Positions 21,253-49,162 of a DNA stretch of 64,000 nucleotides are shown here, piece by piece. The position numbers and the translations under genes were made by a program. Each line of letters opens with the position of its first letter. Position 1 is the first letter of the stretch. This DNA is from Dictyostelium discoideum. Taxonomy: Eukaryota. The notes beneath the pieces were generated by a model. The model was not told where the DNA came from. It worked only from the letters and a program-made list of their open reading frames with translations, and searched no databases. The stretch lies in assembly GCA_000004695.1 (NCBI GenBank), contig CM000153.2, positions 3,008,001-3,072,000 on the forward strand, in the 5' to 3' direction.

Positions 21253-21324
21253 CTCCCTGTCCGGGAATTGAACCCGGGCCTTTCGCGTGACAGGCGAAAA
21301 TCCTCACCACTAGACCAACAAGGA
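21253..21324 (-). tRNA. tRNA-Asp (anticodon GUC), with an external B box about 40 bp downstream.
   Basis: The minus-strand sequence is TCCTTGTTGGTCTAGTGGTGAGGATTTTCGCCTGTCACGCGAAAGGCCCGGGTTCAATTCCCGGACAGGGAG. It has an A box (TGGTCTAGTGG), a B box (GGTTCAATTCC), an anticodon loop CTGTCAC and a 7-bp acceptor stem with G-U pairs. About 35-45 nt downstream, on the tRNA strand (plus-strand coordinates 21211-21229), lies ACAGGTTCGATTCTTGT, a B-box-like element (ex-B). Confidence 0.9.
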
Positions 21325-29531: not shown

Positions 29532-30672
29532 ATGTATCATAATTTTAATTATATTGACGACGAAAATGGACATATTAAAATGTTACCATCACCAGTTAAA
29601 CCAAATGGTGGTAAATTAAGAACACCAACTTCCAAAGCGACAATTTTAACAGCAGATATAGGGCATGAAATTAGAGAAGTTTGGGCACATAATTTAGAAT
29701 ATGAAATGTCACTAATAAGAGAATTAGTTGATATATATCCTTGTGTTGCAATTGTAAGTTACTAATCAACACCATCATCATCACACCATACTATATTTAT
29801 ATTTTATTAAATTTTCAATTGAAAAAAAAAAAAAAAAAAATTAAAATATAATTTTATCAGGACACAGAATTTCCAGGATTTGTAAATAAACCAATTGAAT
29901 CAATGAGAATGTATCCAGATTATAATTATCAAACATTAAGATCAAATGTAGATTTATTAAAGATAATTCAATTTGGAATAACATTTTCAGATAGTACAGG
30001 TTGTTTGCCTGTACCAACATGTACATGGCAATTTAATTTCAAATTTAGTTTAAAAGATGATATGTATTCACCATACGCAATTGAGTTATTAAAAAGTTGT
30101 GGAATTGATTTCCAAAGGATTGAAGACTATGGAATTGATGTTAATGATTTTTCAGAATTATTCATTTCATCAGGTATTGTATTGAATGATAAAATTCAAT
30201 GGATTTGTTTTCATGGTGGTTACGATTTCGGTTATTTATTAAAAGTTTTAAGTTGTTCAGAATTACCAAAATCTGAATCCGATTTTTTCGATCTCTTAAG
30301 AATTTACTTTCCATGTATATACGATGTAAAATATTTAATGAAAAGTTGTAAAAATTTAAAAGGTGGTTTAAGTGGTTTAGCTGAAGATTTAAATGTAAAT
30401 ATTTATATGTATATATATTAAAAAAATAAAAATAAAAAATATGTAATTTAATATTAATAATTTTTTATTTTTTATTTTTTATTTTTTTAAAAAAAATAGG
30501 TGGTCAGAGTCGGTCCTCAACATCAAGCAGGAAGTGATTCTTTATTGACAAATTCAACATTTTTTAAATTAAGAGAGGAATTTTTTGAAAATGAAATTGA
30601 TGATCATAAATATAAAGGAATTTTATATGGTTATAATGTCAGTCAAAATTTTCATCATAATGGTCATTTGTA
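29532..30672 (+). CDS. CCR4-NOT complex deadenylase subunit CAF1 (CNOT7/POP2). Three exons: 29532-29753, 29861-30394 and 30500-30672.
   Basis: [28 protein letters not shown]|DTEFPG matches human CNOT7 IRDVWAHNLEEE...YPYVAMDTEFPGVV, and contains the DEDD catalytic residues. ...[10 protein letters not shown]... is conserved. The C-terminal [16 protein letters not shown]...FFE..IDD.KY.G.LYG matches human [43 protein letters not shown]. Donors are GTAAGT and GTAAAT, with acceptors ttatcag| and aaaatag|. Confidence 0.85.
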
Positions 30673-30730
30673 AACCAAAAATATTTTGATTAGCCAATAA
30701 AAAAAAAAAAAACCATTTTTTTTTTTGTTT

Positions 30731-30761
<31 letters not shown>

Positions 30762-31034
30762 CTTTAATTTTTTTTTGATTTTCTTTTTTTTTGTCCAAGA
30801 TTTTCAGAAAATAAAATTATTTTTACTTTTTTTTTTTTTTTTAAAGTTTTTATCGTCATTGTTTTTTTTTTAATTTTTTTAATCTTCACATATTTATTTA
30901 TTTATTATTTATTTATTTATTTTTATTTTTATTTTTTTTATTAAAAAAAAATTGAGGAATTTCTATTATTTTTTTTTTTATATACCCATAAATAAAAGAA
31001 ATTCCAAAAATAGCAAAAAAAAAAAAAAAAAAAA

Positions 31035-34000
31035 ATGAAAAGTAGAAGAAAACACTTTTTCAAACAAATAGTTTTTATAATTTTAATTTTAATAGTAAGT
31101 GTAAATTCAGAGAGAATTGAATATTCAGCATATAGTGAAGATGATAAATCAATAAATATAGCCTTTAAAATAGATACACCAATTTGGGGATTTTCATATT
31201 ATTATAATCCTATTCAACATTTATCAATTATAAAATCAATTGAACCAATACCAATAATTAGAAATAATATACCATTTAAATGTAGATATCTATTAGATAA
31301 AAAAGGTTATCAAATTAATCTTATAAATTTAAAAGATGAGTATGTATATAACCTTTGCTTGAGATACTTTTTTTTTTTTTTTCAAAACACATTAAATTAA
31401 CACACACACACACATATATACTAATAAAAAAAAAAAATTAAAAAAAAATAGTTTTGGAGAAAATGATTTTTATAATAATATAATTTGTAATGCTACATCT
31501 AATAAAATAACAGAGAATAGTATTCAATTAAAAGGAAATGATATAAATACAACATATGAATTCATATGCATAGATGATAATGATAATAATAATAATAATA
31601 ATAATAATAATATAGATAATATAGATAATTTAATTATAAATAGTAGTGACTATCATGGTGATAGTAGTAATAGTAATAATAGTAATAATAATAATAGTAA
31701 TGAAATTGATAAATTTTTTTGTTTAAAAAATGATTTATCAAATCATACTCTTTGTACATATAATAGCAAATACGCATGCTTACAATCAATTGTTTTTTCA
31801 GGAACAAAAATAAATGAAGTATATAATATAAATAAAAAAGTTTTTTCAACATATAAATTTCAAAGATCAAATATAATTTCAATTAATGGTTTTTCTTATT
31901 CAATATATCTAGGTTAGTAGTAGTAATAATAAATATAAATATATAAATATTTAAATATATGTATACATATGATAAATAATTAATTATAATATTATAATAG
32001 GATGTGAAGCTAAATTTGTTGGAGCAATTAAATCATTAAATGGGATTATAATGTTAGTTGGTACACCATTTTTTAGGGAGAAATTAAGTAGTTATAGTTT
32101 TATGATGGGTGATAAATTATTACCGATTAGTGAAAATTTTGAAAATGATTTTCAATATGGAGAAGATGATAATGTGTTGATATCGATGGGAACTAATCAA
32201 ACTTTTTTAAATTTAACGAGATATTCTGATAATGTTTTGAAAATTCAATTGGAGGGTGGAAAAATCAAAGAGTTTAAAATCGATACACAGAATAAAATGA
32301 CATTGTCAATAGAAGCGTTGGGTGGTGATACAAAACCATATATTCAAATCGACTGTGAGAGTTGTATTGGAGCACGATTGAAAGGTTTGACTATGGATGT
32401 TGCACCAATTGTAAATTCAACCATTTTTCATTTAGATTTTAGTGTTTTTACATTATATGGTTCGATATATCTTCAATCGGCAATAGCACCATTTGAAACT
32501 TCAAATGTGGTTATAATCAATCCGATTATTAAAAGTCCTAAACAGGGTGAGGTTATAAAATTGAGTGTGAATAAAAATCAAAAGTATTCGACTTTGACTG
32601 TATTTGCGTATTATTTACCACCACAATTTGATGGTGAAACGCTGTTCACTTGCCAATTCATTCTGTTTGATAATACAACCATTCAAGTTGACCAAGAGGA
32701 TATATCGTCAACGAATACAGGTAGTTATTGGGAGTATAGTATTCAATCGACATTAACCTATGGTAGCGGCGAATTTCAAATCATTATAAATAATTTTCAA
32801 GTTGTAAATGGTAGTTCAGTAATAACATTTAAAAAAACAAATAGTTTTCGTTATGAATTTGAAAACCCTATCGTAGAAACTATATCACAACCTATAAGAG
32901 ACGGTGTTGGTATTGTAACTTTAACCGGCCAAAATCTTAATGGTTCTCCATTAATAACTATTGAAGGAGAAACTTCAATTAAATGTGGAAATGTTAAATT
33001 TAATGATGTTAATCAAATAACTTTTGAAATTACTCAAAGTCCTACCACAACCACTACCACCACCACCACCACTAAACCTGAAGATAAGTTTTATAATGTT
33101 ATAATTAATGTTGGTGGTACTAAAAGTGAACCATTCTTAATGAATTATTTACCAAGTGGTTGGAAATGTCCAAATAATTGTAGTGGTAATGGTTATTGTG
33201 ATGGTTCGTTAAATTGTATTTGCAATCAAGGATTTTCAGGTTACGATTGTTCAATATTAATTAATCAAGTATTAACCAACGCCAATTCATTACCAATATC
33301 AACAAATCAACAAATAAATGGTTCTTTCTCAATGACTGGTAATCATTTAAAGAATATTAGTTTTGAAATATCTTTAGCTGGTATCATAATTGATAGTGAT
33401 ACATTTAAACCATTACAAACTGATTTTAAAACTTTTTGTAAAGATTTTGATGATGGTTTTACATTGGATGCTAAAAATAGTAAATTATCAATTTCAACCA
33501 CTGCTCAATTCAATCCAAAAATATATAATTCAATTAATAGTATAAATTATAATGGAATTTATTTAGATAAACTTTCAAATAATTCAGTTTATTTAAAGGT
33601 TAATACGGCAAGCTCAACAATAACTACAATGAAATCATTAAAGGTTATTTATAAAGTGGATATAAAGGTTAATGGTAAAATACTCACGGATAATGATGAT
33701 GAATCAGTTACAACTGTAGTATCATCGCCAATTAATAATAAAATTTTAATTAAACATTTAGATTCAAATTCATGTTTACAAATTCATGTTTCAAATAGAT
33801 TTATGAATTATCAAAATATGGATGACGATTATGCTTCATTGGTTAAAATGGAATCAATACCAACAAGTGATATAAATAAACAAGATCAAAATAATCCAAT
33901 TTATTTAAGTATTAATATACCATTCGACGACGACGTTGTAGGTGGTGGTGGTGTTGATGGTGGTGATAATTCAAAATTTTCATTGGAGGTAGCTTCAACT

Positions 34001-34432
34001 TTTAGTGTTTTTAATGAATTTCCAACAAATATTAGAAATTCTCATCCAACTTTAAGTACAGCTGATAAATTCTTTATATCATTTGGTGTTGTAGTTGGTA
34101 TGGTTTTATTATTAGGTTTAATATTTAGATTTAGAAGATCAATTCGTTTCTATACTTTAAGATTCATAATCAATATTTATTTTCGTTATGGAAATCCTAG
34201 TGAAAAAATTCAAAACTTTTATGGTGGTTATGGTGTATTAAATGGTAAATTCGATTCATTAGAACTATTTTCAATGAATGGTGATGATGATGATATGGGA
34301 GCTCCAGATGGTGATGATGGTGTACCTGAGGAAGGTTACATTGTTAATCCATATGATGTTTATGATCCAACTCCAAGTGATTTCTTGGTTAATGAATTCA
34401 TAGAATCAAAAGCAACTTCCGAAATTGATTAA
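31035..34432 (+). CDS. Type-I transmembrane glycoprotein with an IPT/TIG-like domain, an EGF-like domain and an acidic cytoplasmic tail (Tgr/Tiger-family-like). This is copy A. About 3 exons: 31035-31342, about 31452-31903 and about 31993-34432.
   Basis: It has a signal peptide (MKSRRKHFFKQIVFIILILIVSVNS). An IPT/TIG-like stretch reads PIVETISQPIRDGVGIVTLTGQNLNGSPLITIEGE..KCGNVKF. An EGF-like stretch reads CPNNCSGNGYCDGSLNCICNQGFSGYDCS. A poly-Thr linker and a single TM (FISFGVVVGMVLLLGLIF) follow. The tail is acidic (NGDDDDMGAPDGDDGVPEEGY...). Introns are GATGA|GTATGT...aaaatag|TTTTGG and CTAG|GTTAGT...ataatag|GATGTG. Confidence 0.5.
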
Positions 34433-34623
34433 TTTTAGTTTTTAAAATTAAAAAAAAATAAAAAAAATAAAAATGAAAATAAAAAGATAAAACACAATAA
34501 ATCAGGTGTTGTAATTTTTAAAATATTTAATTTTATTTACATTTTGTTTTTTTTTTTTTTTTTTATTTTATACACAATCCCAAAAAAAAAAGTTACTTTC
34601 AAATAAATGAAATTGTTTTTTTC

Positions 34624-34661
<38 letters not shown>

Positions 34662-34777
34662 GTAAAACCGAATTATTTTTGGTTATAGCCATTTTTTTTT
34701 TTTTTTACTTTCAAATATTTCTGATTGTGAATGTATTATATGTAAAAATAACAAAAAAAAAAAAAAAAAAAAAAAAG

Positions 34778-37700
34778 ATGGAAAAAAACCATGTTTTCCA
34801 ATTAATATTTTATTCAATTTTAATTTTAATTGTAAATGTAAATTCAAATAAAATTGAATATTCATCATATAGTGAAGATGATAAATCAATAAATATAACA
34901 CTTATAACAAATATACAGGATTTGGAAATTTCATATTATTATAATCCTATTCAACATTTATCAATTATAAAATCAATTGAACCAATACCAATAATTAGAA
35001 ATAATATACCATTTAAATGTGGATATCTATTAGATAATAAAGGTTATCAAATTAATCTTATAAATTTAAAAGATGAGTATGTATATAACCTGACTACTAT
35101 TTCTTTTGTATAAATTATAATTTTTTAATTAATATTAATAAAAAAAAAATTAAAAAAAAATAGTTTTGGAACAAATGATTTTTATAATAATATAATTTGT
35201 AATGCTACATCTAATAAAATAACAGAGAATAGTATTCAATTAAAAGGAAATGATATAAATACAACATATGAATTCATATGCATAGATGATAATGATAATA
35301 TAAATAATAATGACAATATAGATAATATAGATAATTTAAATAATTATAAAAATAATAATAATAATAATAGTAGTAGTAATAATAATAGTAATCGTAATAA
35401 TAATAATATAGATAATATAGATAATATAGATAATTTAATTATAAATAGTAGTGACTATCATGGTGATAGTAATAATAGTAATAATAGTAATAATAATAAT
35501 AGTAATGAAATTGATAAATTTTTTTGTTTAAAAAATGATTTATCAAATCATACTCTTTGTACATATAATAGCAAATACGCATGTTTACAATCAATTATTT
35601 TTAATGTAACTAGAATAAAAAGAGGATTTTCTATAAATAAAAATTTTATTTCATCCAATCCATTAATTAAAAGATCGAATATAATTTCAATTAATGGTTT
35701 TTATAAATCAATATATCTAGGTTAGTTGGTTATAATTTTAATTTTAATTATATATAAATATAAATAATATAATAATTAAATAAATTTATTAATAATAATT
35801 ATAATAAAATATTTTATTATAGAAAGGAAAGAAAAAAAAATTGTTGGAGAAATTAAATCATTAAATGGTATTGTAACATTAAGTGGTATACCATTTTTTA
35901 GGGAAAAATTAAGTAATTATAGTTTTATAATGGGTGATAATATATTACCAATTAGTGAATATTTTGAAAATGATTTTCAATATAGAGAAGATGATAATGT
36001 ATTGATATCGATGGAGACCAATCAAACAATTTTAAATTTAACAAGATATTCTGATAATATTTTAAAAGTTCAATTAGAAGGTATAGAAATTAAAGAATTT
36101 GAAATCGATACACAAAATAAAATGATTTTATCAATTGAAGAATTGAATGACACTAAACAATACATTCAAATAAATTGTGAAGGTTGTATTGGTGCACAAT
36201 TGAGAGGTTTAACTATGGATATTGGACAAACTGTAAATTCAACGAGTTTTAAATTGTATTATGATACTTTTACACTATATAGTCCCTTATATCTTCAATC
36301 ACCAATTGCACCATTTGAAACTTCAAATCTAGTTATAGTTAAACCAATTTATGATTATCCAATAAAAGGTGAAGTTTTACAATTAAAATCAAAAAGATAT
36401 AAAAATCCAATAATCACTGTATCTGGTTATTATTTACCTTCAAATTATGGTTTCTTTTTGTTCACTCCTGAATTCTTAATTCCTGGAGGAGCAATTATTC
36501 GAAGCTATATCATAAAATCAACTAATATAGGTAGTTATTGGCAGCATAGTATTGAATTGCCAGTGAATCAAGGTAGTGGTGAATTTAGACTTTATAAAAA
36601 TAATTTCATAATCATTGATGGTAAAGTAAATATAATAAATAAAACAGTCGAGATTTTTCCTTTTAAGTTTGATGAAAAACCAATAGTAGAAAGTGTGTCA
36701 CAACTACAAGAGATGGTGCTGGTTATTTAACTATATCTGGTCAAAGCTTTAATTATTACCTTCCAGTTTTGACGATCGAGGAAGAAACCTCTTGGATTTG
36801 TGGAAATATATCTATTTTTCCTGACATTGATCAATTAATTTGTAAAGTTAATAAACATCCTATTCAGGATAGATTCTATAATGTTGTCCTTAAAAAAATT
36901 ATTAGTTATAGATCTTCATATAATAGTGAACCATTCCTAATGAATTATTTACCAAGTGGTTGGAAATGTCCAAATAATTGTAGTGGTAATGGTCATTGTG
37001 ATGGTTCATTAAATTGTATTTGCGATGAAGGATTTTCAGGTTACGATTGTTCAATACTAATTAATCAAGTATTAACCAATGCCAATTCACTACCAATATC
37101 AACAAATCAACAAAGGTTGGGTTCTTTCTCAATGACTGGTAATCATTTAAATAATATGAATTTTCAAATCTCTTTAGTTGGTATCATTACTGATAGTGAT
37201 ACTAATTTAGAAGCAGCTGAAACATCTTTTAAATATTCAACAAAAAATTCCAATTCAGTTTATTATAAAGATTCAGTTAATGGTTTTACATTGGATGCTA
37301 AAAATAGTAATTATTCAATTTCGGCCACTGCTCAATTCAATCCAAATGTATATTTAAATAATAGTATAAATTATAATGGAATTTATTTAGATAAACTTTC
37401 AAATAATTCTGTATATTTAAAGGTTAATCTTACAATAGGTGAATTAAACAATAAAGATATACTAAAGGTTATTTATAAAGTTAATTTAAATGTTAATAAT
37501 CAAATTCTTGGAGATTTAAAAAAATCAGTTACTATATCTTCACCAATTAATAATAAGATTTTAATTAAACATTTAGACTCATGTTCATGTTTACAAATTC
37601 ATCTTTCAAATAGATTTATAAATAATGGATCAATTAATGATGGTTATGCTTCATTGGTTAAAATGGAATCAATAACTGAACAAGATAATTCAATTTATTT

Positions 37701-38100
37701 TAGTATTGAAATTCCAATTAATAATAATAATATAAATTCAACATCAGGAGTTTCATTGGAAGTTACTTCAAGTTTTAGTGTTTTTAATGAAATTATAGTT
37801 TTTGAAATTTTAGGTACAGATGGTAATTCTTTAATAATTTTTGGTATTGTAGTTAGTTTGGTTCTATTATTTTATTTAATGTTTGGATTTAAAAGAAATT
37901 TAACCAATGGTATATTAAATGGTAAAACCAACTCATTTGAATTACTCCCAATGAATGGTGATGATTTAGGTGCTCCTGATGATGATTGTTTTCCTGAGAA
38001 AGGCTACATTTTTAATCCTAATGACATTAATGATTCAACTCTTAGTGATATCTTGGTTAATGAATTCATTGAGTCAAAAGCAACTTGTGAAACTGATTAA
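34778..38100 (+). pseudogene. Tandem paralog (copy B) of the preceding Tgr-like glycoprotein gene. A 1-bp deletion (-1 frameshift) near 36705 makes it either a possible pseudogene or a sequencing error.
   Basis: It has the same 3-exon layout (34778-about 35082, about 35163-35715, about 35830-38100). Exons 1-2 are almost nucleotide-identical to copy A over about 300 bp. Exon 3 is 60-70% identical at the protein level. Relative to copy A, cacaacctataagagacggtg reads cacaactacaag-agatggtg. This splits the ORF into 35930-36730 and 36769-38100. The EGF-like CPNNCSGNGHCDGSLNCICDEGFSGYDCS, the TM and the acidic tail (NGDDLGAPDDDCFPEKGY) are conserved after the shift. Confidence 0.5.
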
Positions 38101-38908
38101 TTTAATTAATAAAAAAAAATAAAAAAATAAAAAAAAAGCCATTGGAAAAAAAGAAATCAATTCATTTTTTCACTTTTTTAAAATTATCTATTCAAGTCTA
38201 ATTAAATAACAAGATAAAAGGGCAAAACAACCCAATAATATTTAAATAATAAATCAAAAAAAAATTTAATTATCTTTGATGATTCATCAAAGTGTTTTAA
38301 AAAATTAGATCAGCATCAATGGAAAAGGAACTAATAATTGCAATACAAATAAAAGAGTTTTTTTTTTTTTTTTTTTTATCATTTTTTTAGATGTGGGGTT
38401 TTATAGATTTTTAAAAAAAAAAAATAAAAAAAATAAAAAACAAACCAATTCAATAAAATCTATTTTTCCCTATTCATTTTTCTTCAAAATATAAAAGGAA
38501 TTACAAAAAATGAATGTTAAATAATTAAATTCTAAAAATAAAATTTTATATTAAAAAAATAAAAAAAAAAATAAATAAATTCAAAAAACAGAAATTACAA
38601 ATTAATTCATTTTTTTTATATTTTAAATCATTTTGTGTATTTACAAGTGTTCTATTTATCTAAACTAAATCCATATTAAAATAAATAAAACTAAATCATT
38701 GTAAAAAAAAAAAAATTTTAAAACTAAAAAAAAGGAAATATTTTAAAGGGGAGAAAAAAAAAAAAATTAAAAAAATTAAAAAAAATAAAAAAAACAAAAC
38801 CCTATTTAATCCTATTGAAAAGGTTTTTGATAGGGTGGTTTATTTTAGAAAAAAAAAAAAAAAATACAAACAAGGAAAATCTGTAAATTTTTATTTTAAT
38901 TTTTTAAT

Positions 38909-39965: not shown

Positions 39966-40910
39966 TTAATTTTTCTTTGAAGAATTTGAAGATGAAGATA
40001 ATTTTCCTTTATCTCTTTTTTTCTTTATTACATTATCTTGTTCCACTATTTCATTTCTATCGTTTATCTAAAAATTAATAAATAAATAAATAAAAAAAAG
40101 AATTTATTAATAACCACCCCCACCCCAATTAAATTAATAAAATAAATAATAAAACCTAATAAAATAAATAATAAAACCTACAGAATTTAAATAAGTAGAA
40201 GAAGATGTTGAAAAAAGACGATCAGATTCTTTCCATCTTAATTTTTTTAAAGCGCCACTACCAGATATATAACTATCAAATCCTCTAATAACATTACCCA
40301 CATGATGAGTATCCTCTAAATATCTGCCCTCCAATGCATAAATTTGTTTCTCTAGTGTGGCTAATTTATTTTCTATATTCTTTTTCTCTGACATTAACTC
40401 TTCAATCTCCACTATAACCTCTTGTTTCATCCTTTTCTTTGGTAATATTGTTGCTATTGGTGTAACTACTGCTGCTGTTGTAGTTGTAGTTGTAGTTGTT
40501 GGTGTTGGGGTTGTTGTTGGTGTTGCATTCGCATTTGTAGATGATGATAATGATGATGATGATGATGATGTATCTGTATTACTATTTAATGTATTTGTAG
40601 TGGTTGTTGATGGTGATGGTGATGGTGATGGTGATGGTAATGTTGTTGTGGTAGTATTAGTTGTATTAGATGGTTGTGCATTTGTTGATGATGATGTTGA
40701 TACTGTGGTTGGTGTTGAATTTGTTTCATTTGTTGTTGTTACTATTTTCTTATCATTATTTTCTGTGGGGGTCAAAGATGGTATAGGTATATTACTACTT
40801 GATTTTTTATTTGATTTTTTATTTACACTTTTTTCATTGTCTTCTATAACATCCTCTCCATCAATTGTTTCCTCTTCTGTTTCCATTGTTACATCTTTAT
40901 TTTCACTCAT
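39966..40910 (-). CDS. Chromatin modification-related protein MEAF6/Eaf6 (a NuA4/HAT complex subunit). Two exons: 40910-40192 and 40067-39966.
   Basis: The conserved core KKNIENKLATLEKQIYALEGRYLEDTHHVGNVIRGFDSYI matches human MEAF6 [37 protein letters not shown]. A long S/T-rich N-terminal extension precedes it. After ...DRLFSTSSSTYLNS the donor is TCT|GTAGGT. The acceptor ttttag|ATAAACGAT gives a basic tail INDRNEIVEQDNVIKKKRDKGKLSSSSNSSKKN*. Confidence 0.7.
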
Positions 40911-48667: not shown

Positions 48668-49090
48668 AAAATATATTTTTGGTACCAAAAACTATCACTC
48701 TTGCGAAATTTAAGTTATAAAAAGAAAAAAAAAATAATAAAAAAATTTAAGTTAATAAAAAAAAATATAATAAGAATAATGCATAATCATTTTAATTTAC
48801 GTGTCCTGTTTTGATGGATTTTTTTTTTTTTTTGAGTTAAAGGTATTACTTTATTTATTTATTCAATTTTTATAATTATTAAATTATTAATTATAAAATT
48901 TGTTTAAAAATAAATGTATAAAATAATAAATAATTTTAATAATGGAAAAGTATTTATAATAAATTGGGTGTTTGCAATAATTATTTGAACTTTTTAGTAT
49001 TGTATGTTGTCTGTTGTTGTTTGTTTGTTTGTTTTTTGAAACTCAAGGTTATAACATCCGAAGTTCGGATTTTTATGAAAAATCCAAAAG

Positions 49091-49162
49091 CTCCCTGTCC
49101 GGGAATTGAACCCGGGCCTTTCGCGTGACAGGCGAAAATCCTCACCACTAGACCAACAAGGA
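49091..49162 (-). tRNA. tRNA-Asp (anticodon GUC), a second copy identical to the one at 21253-21324.
   Basis: It is 72/72 nt identical to the first copy and shares 18 nt of identical 5' flank (ggatatttgatatttttt). Downstream on the plus strand lies GAAGTTCGGATTTTT (49061-49075), a B-box-like element. Confidence 0.9.

Follow-up and report, generated by a model that had tools for sequence, protein, structure and literature searches.

High polymorphism or positive selection is a trait of tgrB1, tgrC1 and tgrB2, and not of every member of the Tgr (Tiger) allorecognition family. Interlocus (ectopic) conversion between a functional gene and a tandem pseudogene leaves short near-identical tracts, in which silent and intronic sites are included. 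The Tgr family is defined through extracellular IPT/TIG or Ig E-set repeats (IPR002909/PF01833; 10.1101/2025.10.22.684067). Its gene clusters undergo birth-and-death evolution, with pseudogenised duplicates and exchange of sequence between paralogs (10.1101/2025.10.22.684067, PMC12745789).

The two Dictyostelium discoideum paralogs described here, A and B, resemble TgrB1, TgrC1 and their paralogs in having a signal peptide, an Ig-like/IPT-type ectodomain and a single transmembrane (TM) segment. Likewise, they share with the tgr genes the presence of duplicates with pseudogenised copies and of sequence exchange between paralogs. They also fit the general picture of interlocus conversion, since their near-identical tracts are bounded by diverged sequence and lineage-specific variants occur in both copies; nothing about them is unusual in this respect. 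We consider it likely that the pair represents tandem duplicates of a lineage-restricted gene encoding a type I membrane glycoprotein, of which A is intact and B is a young pseudogene, and that short tracts of the two have been gene-converted.

Gene models and genomic setting

The window, the whole stretch of DNA that was analysed, is 64 kb long. A (31035-34432) and B (34778-38100) are paralogs lying head-to-tail on the same strand (+), as are all features given below. Each consists of three exons, and the GT-AG introns occupy homologous positions with equal phases, which confirms the original prediction of tandem paralogs with one three-exon layout. Exon 1 of A (31035..31339) runs from the ATG start to a GTATGT donor. 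Exon 2 (31452..31912) has the borders AG/T and G/GTTAGT and maintains the frame, and exon 3 (32001..34432) is an open frame of 810 codons encoding a beta-rich ectodomain, the TM segment and a cytoplasmic tail. The spliced product, 1065 aa long and free of stops, matches AX4 DDB_G0285297/Q54NG6 exactly. The exons of B lie at 34778..35076, 35164..35720 and 35823..38100. Exon 2 of B encodes an Asn/Ile/Asp low-complexity stretch longer than that of A, and exon 3, which is broken by a frameshift, contains the EGF module (36967-37050) and the TM segment (37828-37896). B corresponds to AX4 DDB_G0285271, and both genes are annotated "hypothetical protein". A literature search for DDB_G0285297, DDB_G0285271 and both UniProt identifiers found no mention.

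No further paralog of A or B is present within the 64-kb window. The pair is surrounded by housekeeping genes and not by a tgr cluster; genes nearby include CIAPIN1, RPL17 and PH_LRR1. A search with PH_LRR1 for more strains recovered nothing beyond the AX2-type assembly and some short contigs. Judged by synonymous divergence, the duplication is old, as paralog dS is ~0.7 in unconverted parts versus ~0.1 between lineages.

Domain architecture of the encoded proteins

On profile and hydropathy evidence, each protein combines a signal peptide with tandem Ig-like domains, one EGF module and a TM segment; the second Ig-like domain is IPT/TIG-like, at a level below the Pfam threshold. In A, the hydrophobic N-terminus forms the putative signal peptide (31035-31109). 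Exon 2 encodes a Cys-containing N-terminal region as well as an Asn-rich low-complexity stretch (~31580-31700), whose length varies across four copies. Exon 3 encodes a predicted Ig-like beta-sandwich domain 1 (aa ~446-544; 32570..32866), followed by the IPT/TIG-like domain (aa ~545-640; 32867..33154), into which a poly-Thr run is inserted at 33047-33076. Next comes the only EGF-like domain, which has six Cys and the PROSITE-type pattern CxCxxGFxxxxC (33167..33250), and a membrane-proximal beta region separates it from the TM segment (34070..34132; Kyte-Doolittle peak 2.74) and the acidic cytoplasmic tail of 99 aa (34133-34429). In hydropathy profiles the signal peptide and the single TM segment stand out as peaks, at aa 7-26 and 942-967 of A and at 951-976 of B.

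The IPT/TIG (E-set Ig-like) assignment comes from similarity to a known structure. A family profile matched the IPT/TIG protein 5e7g in the PDB with E = 3e-7 to 5e-6 (5.1e-6 for A1 and 3.2e-7 for A3); for the IPT/TIG-like domain of A the values are 9.5e-7 to 5e-6. The match to this protein, Bacteroides ovatus SGBP-B BACOVA_02650 (PDB 5e7g/5e7h), extends for ~160 residues over the two tandem Ig-like domains, and the PxV..vS...G..vTi.GqNf motif is present. BACOVA_02650 is a bacterial glycan-binding lipoprotein, and the likeness is at the domain level only and silent on function. The Pfam TIG model, proposed earlier as a check on this domain, returned no match at E <= 1 on the whole A and B proteins. 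On isolated segments it scored 13.7 bits in B and 14.7 bits in the D. purpureum homolog, both under the cut-off of 20.9, and gave no match on the A segment. By the refuting condition set for the earlier prediction, this outcome formally counts against a TIG/IPT domain. A low-confidence cropped AF2 model (pLDDT 62) retrieved generic tandem Ig-like matches from the PDB with TM-scores of only 0.23-0.30; the full-length AlphaFold model had a mean pLDDT of 35.5 and was left unused.

The EGF signature CxCxx[GP][FYW]x(4,8)C, with six cysteines, occurs once in each of four copies, while Pfam EGF_2 scores of 16.7-17.4 bits fall below the curated cut-off of 22.1. The module also matches the EGF of reelin (E = 1.5e-7, profile against PDB), and UniRef automatically names both AX4 proteins "Reelin". 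This likeness is confined to the EGF-like module with a few adjoining residues, ~47-75 residues in all, and Pfam found neither a reeler domain nor reelin subrepeats in A or B and gave no further hit. We therefore rejected a reelin identity and regard the name as a by-product of annotation. From the Ig/IPT-EGF-TM architecture alone, A would probably be a surface protein that serves adhesion or recognition.

A frameshift in copy B and its concealment in public models

One base is missing from B after 36704 (36704..36705), at the beginning of the IPT/TIG-like domain, which bears out a predicted 1-bp deletion at about 36705. A reads tcacaaCctataagag at this site and B reads tcacaa-ctacaagag, and a stop follows codon 587. 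One base added to B gives a 1044-aa open frame to the shared C-terminus; apart from that base, the 1044-codon frame in the window is fully open. An otherwise open frame of this length is what one would see if B were functional and the deletion were an error of assembly, or if it were bypassed via a cryptic intron as in the public models. The first of these is contradicted by assembly L002, a long-read-era sequence that is 99.6% identical over 23 kb and carries the same deletion. Its homopolymer lengths differ from those of the window, indicating that L002 is a separate assembly. Judged by this recurrence, the deletion is real and not an assembly error.

Bypass via an intron is favored by the existence of bridged models from two annotation pipelines, of 1037 aa (AX4) and 1021 aa (AX2-type). 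Both bridge the frameshift by an invented intron. The AX4 protein (P0005), in which KPIVE is directly followed by NGAGYL, requires the excision of gtgtgtcacaactacaagag, an 'intron' of 20 nt (36693..36712), whereas real Dictyostelium introns are far longer than this; we regard it as an annotation artefact. The intron of the AX2-type annotation is a 69-nt interval (36626-36694) with GT...AG ends, and its removal by splicing could in theory bridge the lesion. However, this interval aligns to coding sequence of A and of B from the divergent isolate L001, and splicing it out would drop 23 residues at the junction of the two Ig-like domains.

Furthermore, B is disabled independently in two other lineages of the D. 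discoideum complex. B of L001 has a G at the 36704 site and keeps the frame there, but contains lesions of its own: codon 12 is TAA, exon 2 has lost 1 bp, and codons 720 and 937 are stops. All that is left of B in L004 is a 3' remnant of 1.1 kb, frameshifted in the tail. The different lesions in the AX4/AX2, L001 and L004 lineages show that B has been dying independently in several lineages. Likewise, the dN/dS ratio of B orthologs is raised to 0.55 (dS 0.068, dN 0.037), as compared with 0.23 for A orthologs (dS 0.105, dN 0.024), a value by which A is under purifying selection. In view of these observations a functional B is very improbable. B retains its introns and carries a lesion that is not an artefact, as an unprocessed (duplicated) pseudogene does. 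On this comparison of lineages, B (DDB_G0285271) is a pseudogene that lost its function recently, and in the AX4/AX2 lineage a single 1-bp deletion truncates its protein.

Mosaic identity between the paralogs

The identity profile of A and B is mosaic, with no uniform divergence along the genes. Near-identity had been predicted for exons 1 and 2 and their intron borders. It is present at 31192-31353 and ~31428-31790, that is from 31192 through the 3' half of exon 1 and, in exon 2, through the 5' three quarters to ~31790; the prediction does not hold for the start of exon 1 (83-86% over the first 157 nt), the end of exon 2 (~75-80%) or the interiors of both introns, which are diverged. A stretch described as 160 bp with 2 differences measures 157 bp (31197-31353 versus 34934-35090) and has exactly that number, at 31284 and 31301. 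The three longest runs of identity measure 128, 111 and 92 nt, and in column shuffles (n=2000) the longest run had a mean of 31 and a maximum of 58. Exon 3 is 54-58% identical at the protein level, less than the 60-70% previously claimed. Its nucleotide identity is mosaic as well, being 50-70% at 32500-33090 and 92-96% around the EGF module (33092-33340).

Two tracts stand out, both 98-100% identical between A and B with silent sites included. Tract 1 (31192..31353; B partner 34929-35090) comprises the 3' half of exon 1 and 14 nt of intron 1. It has zero orthology-informative sites, and a 2-bp intron indel in it is common to both paralogs within each lineage. Tract 2 (~31428..31790; B partner 35140-35595) comprises the last ~24 nt of intron 1 and most of exon 2, and contains exact runs of 128 and 111 nt. 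From 31452 to 31730 there are zero orthology-informative sites versus two concerted sites (31505 and 31719). Both genes with their 300-nt flanks hold 588 informative sites that support orthology, of which 0 fall in tract 1 and 0 in that portion of tract 2 which lies in exon 2. Inside the tracts, paralogs diverge by 1.5-1.7% and orthologs by 1.2-2.0%; outside them, paralogs diverge by 23% and orthologs by 4.1-4.4%. Only three lineage-specific variants are common to both paralogs (31505, 31719 and the intron 2-bp indel), one of which, a TA-repeat indel, could recur via slippage. Such sharing of lineage-specific variants by A and B within the tracts indicates gene conversion. A cDNA-mediated origin of identity confined to exons was rejected because intron 1 is retained in both copies.

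The near-identical blocks might alternatively reflect strong purifying selection on a protein or nucleotide element in both copies, with no gene conversion. The blocks match the exons and leave out the interior of intron 1, and they also evolve slowly between orthologs (1.2% versus 4.1%, p = 0.003). This slow evolution implies that constraint on the sequence of A contributes, since conversion alone would be insufficient to produce it. The silent sites, however, agree as well: there are 0/50 synonymous differences inside the tracts, whereas adjoining segments have a dS of 0.2-0.7, and 4/160 third codon positions differ in the tracts versus 16-34% elsewhere. Identity also continues for 14 nt and ~24 nt into intron 1, and an Rfam scan of 30500-38600 gave sub-threshold chance matches only, with no RNA family in the blocks. 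Moreover, selection cannot be acting on B itself, given that both lineages have B as a pseudogene, and the changes specific to each lineage are found in both paralogs. Purifying selection as the whole explanation is thus quite unlikely. Long tracts, identity at silent sites and three shared lineage-specific variants are all present, as in interlocus gene conversion, and together they support gene conversion at the 5' end, in two tracts.

Conversion had originally been thought to be restricted to the 5' end. The 5' location is upheld, but the exchange appears as two tracts, one on either side of the intron 1 interior, and a further patch may be present downstream. This patch (33110..33240; B partner ~36910-37040) takes in the last part of the IPT-like domain together with the EGF module, at 92-96% identity. 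It contains 1 orthology site and 1 concerted site, and paralog dS is 0.17 within it, 0.70 upstream and 0.34 downstream. We suggest that it may be the product of an older exchange.

The two tracts across the exon 1/exon 2 region have gone on exchanging sequence after the lineages parted, and within them the paralogs resemble each other as closely as orthologs do. According to the model that we propose, exchange would survive only in islands whose similarity still allows heteroduplexes to form. Intron 1, with its indel-rich interior, would block exchange, and for this reason the tracts would end where they do.

Relation to the Tgr family and to other homologs

The pair had been proposed to be Tgr-like, with diversifying selection on the ectodomain, as in tgrB1 and tgrC1, as an alternative account of the low identity of exon 3. 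The architecture of Ig-like/IPT-like domains, signal peptide and TM segment speaks for membership, and a tandem duplicate with a pseudogene recalls the birth-and-death evolution of the tgr genes (10.1101/2025.10.22.684067). Of the proposal, the EGF and the IPT/TIG-like domain hold up, with one of each, but no Tgr protein was detected: none is among the 84 HMMER matches of exon 3 (phmmer, 1.84 billion representatives including the AX4 proteome), and beyond the small family of A and B themselves the matches are generic EGF ones. As judged from this match list, an indirect test, A and B lack the detectable sequence homology expected of Tgr proteins. The curated IPT/TIG repeats were found in neither protein; unlike the Tgr repeat array, A and B have at most one TIG domain, sub-threshold in Pfam, and they carry an EGF domain. 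AX4 names neither gene tgr. Furthermore, the two genes lie head-to-tail amid housekeeping genes, outside the tgr clusters.

Selection on A likewise argues against the proposal. Diversifying selection finds no support in the orthologs of A, for which dN/dS across exon 3 is 0.12-0.42, and hypervariability is not seen, with an overall ratio of 0.23 and a mismatch of 3.7% between the two lineages compared, slightly above the 1.5-3% of the housekeeping neighbours. Membership of the pair in the Tgr allorecognition family is thus quite improbable.

The sole homolog detected outside the D. discoideum complex is D. purpureum DICPUDRAFT_76336 (F0ZDB1, 591 aa), an 'EGF-like domain-containing protein' found with HMMER. 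It is 31% identical over 239 aa that include both Ig-like domains and the EGF, and shares with A and B the membrane-proximal region and the TM segment. In contrast to A and B, it lacks the N-terminal part of ~450 aa, the conversion-tract region included, has a short tail and is not syntenic with them. Querying a word index with either the full protein or exon 3 yielded three D. discoideum proteins among the best 8000 candidates and missed P0006, so that absence from these lists carries no weight.

Discussion

The pattern in our data is an ordinary one, and the pair is no new recognition locus. A reading that we hold to be unlikely is that A and B form an unrecognised, very divergent branch of Ig/IPT-type surface receptors of the D. 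discoideum complex, in which A would serve adhesion or recognition and B, repeatedly inactivated but still converting, would be a sequence reservoir. If true, this role of B would mirror on a small scale a proposal made for the tgr family. The pair raises no new question unless A proves to act in adhesion or recognition.

The practical value of the result lies chiefly in annotation. The public status of DDB_G0285271 as an intact protein rests on a fake intron that hides a real frameshift, and the gene should therefore carry a pseudogene flag. Likewise, the name "Reelin" is misleading for both proteins. For the biology of the organism, tandem duplicates of a lineage-restricted gene, with B inactivated and short tracts probably converted, provide a clean small example of conversion tracts that persist between a functional gene and a tandem pseudogene, and show how sister lineages can lose the same duplicate in parallel.

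Structure of the tandem pair

Translation of this AT-rich Dictyostelium DNA bore out the original prediction of a tandem pair with a three-exon layout. Both genes lie on the + strand and share one structure (exons 31035-31339, 31452-31912 and 32001-34432 in A; 34778-35076, 35164-35720 and 35823-38100 in B), with GT-AG introns at homologous positions and in equal phases; A encodes a stop-free product of 1065 aa. Cluster look-up identified A as DDB_G0285297 (Q54NG6) and B as DDB_G0285271 (Q54NG5) of the AX4 reference strain, both described as "hypothetical protein" and automatically named "Reelin" in UniRef. Our literature search for these two identifiers found mention of neither gene. The neighbours are housekeeping genes (saccharopine dehydrogenase, CIAPIN1, CAF1, peroxiredoxin, RPL17, RhoGEF), and no further copy of A or B is present in the 64-kb window. 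The window also has two minus-strand tRNA-Asp(GTC) genes, ~28 kb apart (21253-21324 and 49090-49162). A downstream NuA4-domain gene with abundant Thr, Ser and Pro low-complexity sequence (39966-40910; 18553-19555 in L001, a second D. discoideum-labelled locus), is 83% identical between lineages, the minimum of the neighbourhood.

Independent loss of B

The frame of B is lost after base 36704 (A, tcacaaCctataagag; B, tcacaa-ctacaagag), and a stop then follows codon 587; adding one base yields a 1044-aa frame reaching the C-terminus common to A. The 1037-aa model of B in AX4, reading ...KPIVE directly into NGAGYL..., needs 20 nt (36693-36712) taken out, an "intron" that is an annotation device masking the frameshift. 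The newer annotation (P0002, 1021 aa) removes 69 nt instead (36626-36694). Both public models of DDB_G0285271 span the frameshift by an invented intron, and thus the protein circulates in NCBI and UniProt as intact. The deletion is also present in L002 (GCA_054883475.1), a separate assembly since its homopolymer lengths differ. Over 23 kb it shares 99.6% identity with the window, and across A and B the match is exact. The new assemblies were described by Holland et al. 2025 (PMC12745789); among them is the lab strain AX2-214, the probable source of L002.

Across the 23-kb neighbourhood as a whole, the L001 locus (GCA_054859385.1) is ~91% identical and belongs to a divergent lineage whose divergence is general and not locus-specific. 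A is intact in L001, with 1055 aa at 92% identity. The B ortholog of L001 has a G at the equivalent of 36704, where the frame is kept, and carries four disabling lesions of its own (L001 13723-16904): two TAA stops, at codons 12 and 937, a further stop at codon 720 and the loss of 1 bp in exon 2. The annotated product of this copy (856 aa) begins at an unrelated upstream ATG. In L004 (1-1660), from Dictyostelium cf. discoideum (~85% identical), just the 3' 1.1 kb of B is left, with a tail frameshift, beside the same peroxiredoxin gene at a contig end; this truncation is either a rearrangement or an assembly break. Upstream, between the remnant and the contig end, lies unrelated DNA made of tandem repeats and low-complexity sequence. 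No B lesion is common to the window, L001 and L004 lineages, indicating that B was intact at their split and was lost independently. Together, the deletion in L002 and the separate lesions elsewhere uphold the predicted frameshift and pseudogene status of B.

Nei-Gojobori estimates for A orthologs (dS 0.105, dN 0.024, dN/dS 0.23, ranging 0.12-0.42 along exon 3) and B orthologs (dS 0.068, dN 0.037, dN/dS 0.55) show that A is constrained and B relaxed. Synonymous divergence is lower in the pseudogene than in intact A, which may be chance; total substitutions per branch are about equal. Mismatch at A between the two lineages is 3.7%, near the 1.5-3% of neighbouring housekeeping genes. Diversifying selection, which had been offered as an alternative source of the mosaic identity, thus finds no sign at A in these two lineages, nor does Tgr-style hypervariability.

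Probable exchange between A and B

Sliding-window comparison (A coordinates) revealed strongly uneven identity between the paralogs: ~98% at 31214-31314 and 98-100% at 31414-31720, excluding a length-variable Asn-rich repeat, against 83-86% at the exon 1 start, 75-80% at the exon 2 end and 50-70% at 32500-33090, rising again to 92-96% over the EGF region (33092-33340). The near-identical stretch first quoted measures 157 bp (31197-31353 and 34934-35090) with exactly two differences. The Asn-rich "IDNIDN/NSNN" sequence of exon 2 (31580-31700; 35290-35480) differs in length in all four copies, window B exceeding L001 B by 126 bp.

The longest identical runs are 128, 111 and 92 nt, while 2000 shuffles gave at most 58. 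Third codon positions differ at 4 of 160 in the two 5' tracts versus 16-34% elsewhere, and none of 50 synonymous sites within the tracts differs; paralog dS comes to 0.19-0.25 for the exon parts beside them and 0.70 for aa 356-620. A four-way alignment of window and L001 copies, flanked by 300 nt, has 588 informative sites that group orthologs; 31201-31339 and 31452-31730 contain none of these. Within each lineage, both paralogs share tract variants, namely substitutions at 31505 and at 31719, plus an indel of 2 bp in the 5' end of intron 1. Paralog divergence in the tracts (1.5-1.7%) equals ortholog divergence (1.2-2.0%); outside them paralogs differ by 23% and orthologs by 4.1-4.4%. With B a pseudogene in both lineages, selection cannot maintain its sequence. 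Exchange between A and B is the simplest explanation of the tract identity, in line with the predicted gene conversion.

Neither tract covers the interior of intron 1, an indel-rich stretch that is specific to each paralog yet conserved between orthologs; conversion would persist solely in islands similar enough to pair. A (CA)n microsatellite in A intron 1 (31400-31416) is kept in L001 A and missing from both B copies. The tracts also evolve slowly between orthologs (p = 0.003), so the N-terminal region of A is probably under strong constraint too. A patch at 33110-33240, with one orthology site only and paralog dS of 0.17, may be an older conversion.

Relation to known families

Hydropathy indicates an N-terminal signal sequence and one TM segment, and A has 16 N-glycosylation sequons. 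The EGF region has six cysteines and a CxCxxGFxxxxC signature, and the family profile matches reelin EGF (E ~1e-7); the name "Reelin" is an artefact of the EGF match. The profile also matches the IPT/TIG protein BACOVA_02650 (PDB 5e7g) over ~160 positions (E = 5.1e-6 and 3.2e-7). Pfam found no TIG domain at E <= 1 in the full A and B proteins, and all EGF matches were sub-threshold; isolated segments stayed below the TIG cut-off of 20.9 bits, at 13.7 for B and 14.7 for the D. purpureum homolog. The failure of Pfam TIG to pick up A is probably due to a poly-Thr insert of 10 codons (9 in L001) in a loop of its IPT-like domain (33047-33076), missing from B and the D. purpureum homolog. AlphaFold gave no usable model of the full-length protein (pLDDT 35), and a crop of aa 430-678 (pLDDT 62) gave only generic matches to tandem Ig-like domains. 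A 27-aa juxtamembrane insertion in A (34142-34222; SIRFYTLRFIINIYFRYGNPSEKIQNF...) is missing from B in both lineages. A, B and the L004 remnant all keep the distal acidic tail (...GYIVNP.D..D...SD.LVNEFIESKAT.E.D).

HMMER, run in full against 1.84 billion representative proteins, returned three kinds of match (the B ortholog with the L004 fragment, one D. purpureum protein and generic EGF), none of them Tgr. The D. purpureum protein (DICPUDRAFT_76336) is 31% identical over 239 aa and not syntenic. Tgr proteins are defined by a TM segment and InterPro-recognised IPT/TIG or Ig E-set repeats (10.1101/2025.10.22.684067; PMC12745789). A and B share with them a general surface-receptor layout and duplicate-plus-pseudogene dynamics, but fail both domain-model and sequence-homology tests, carry EGF and are not hypervariable. 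We therefore set aside the Tgr label; the pair resembles an Ig/IPT-EGF surface protein, and its architecture suggests a function at the surface.

The phenomenon itself is ordinary: of an old tandem pair, one copy has been lost recently and more than once, and short conversion tracts last. Usefully, two public gene models are corrected, and the pair offers a clean case of conversion between a gene and its pseudogene.
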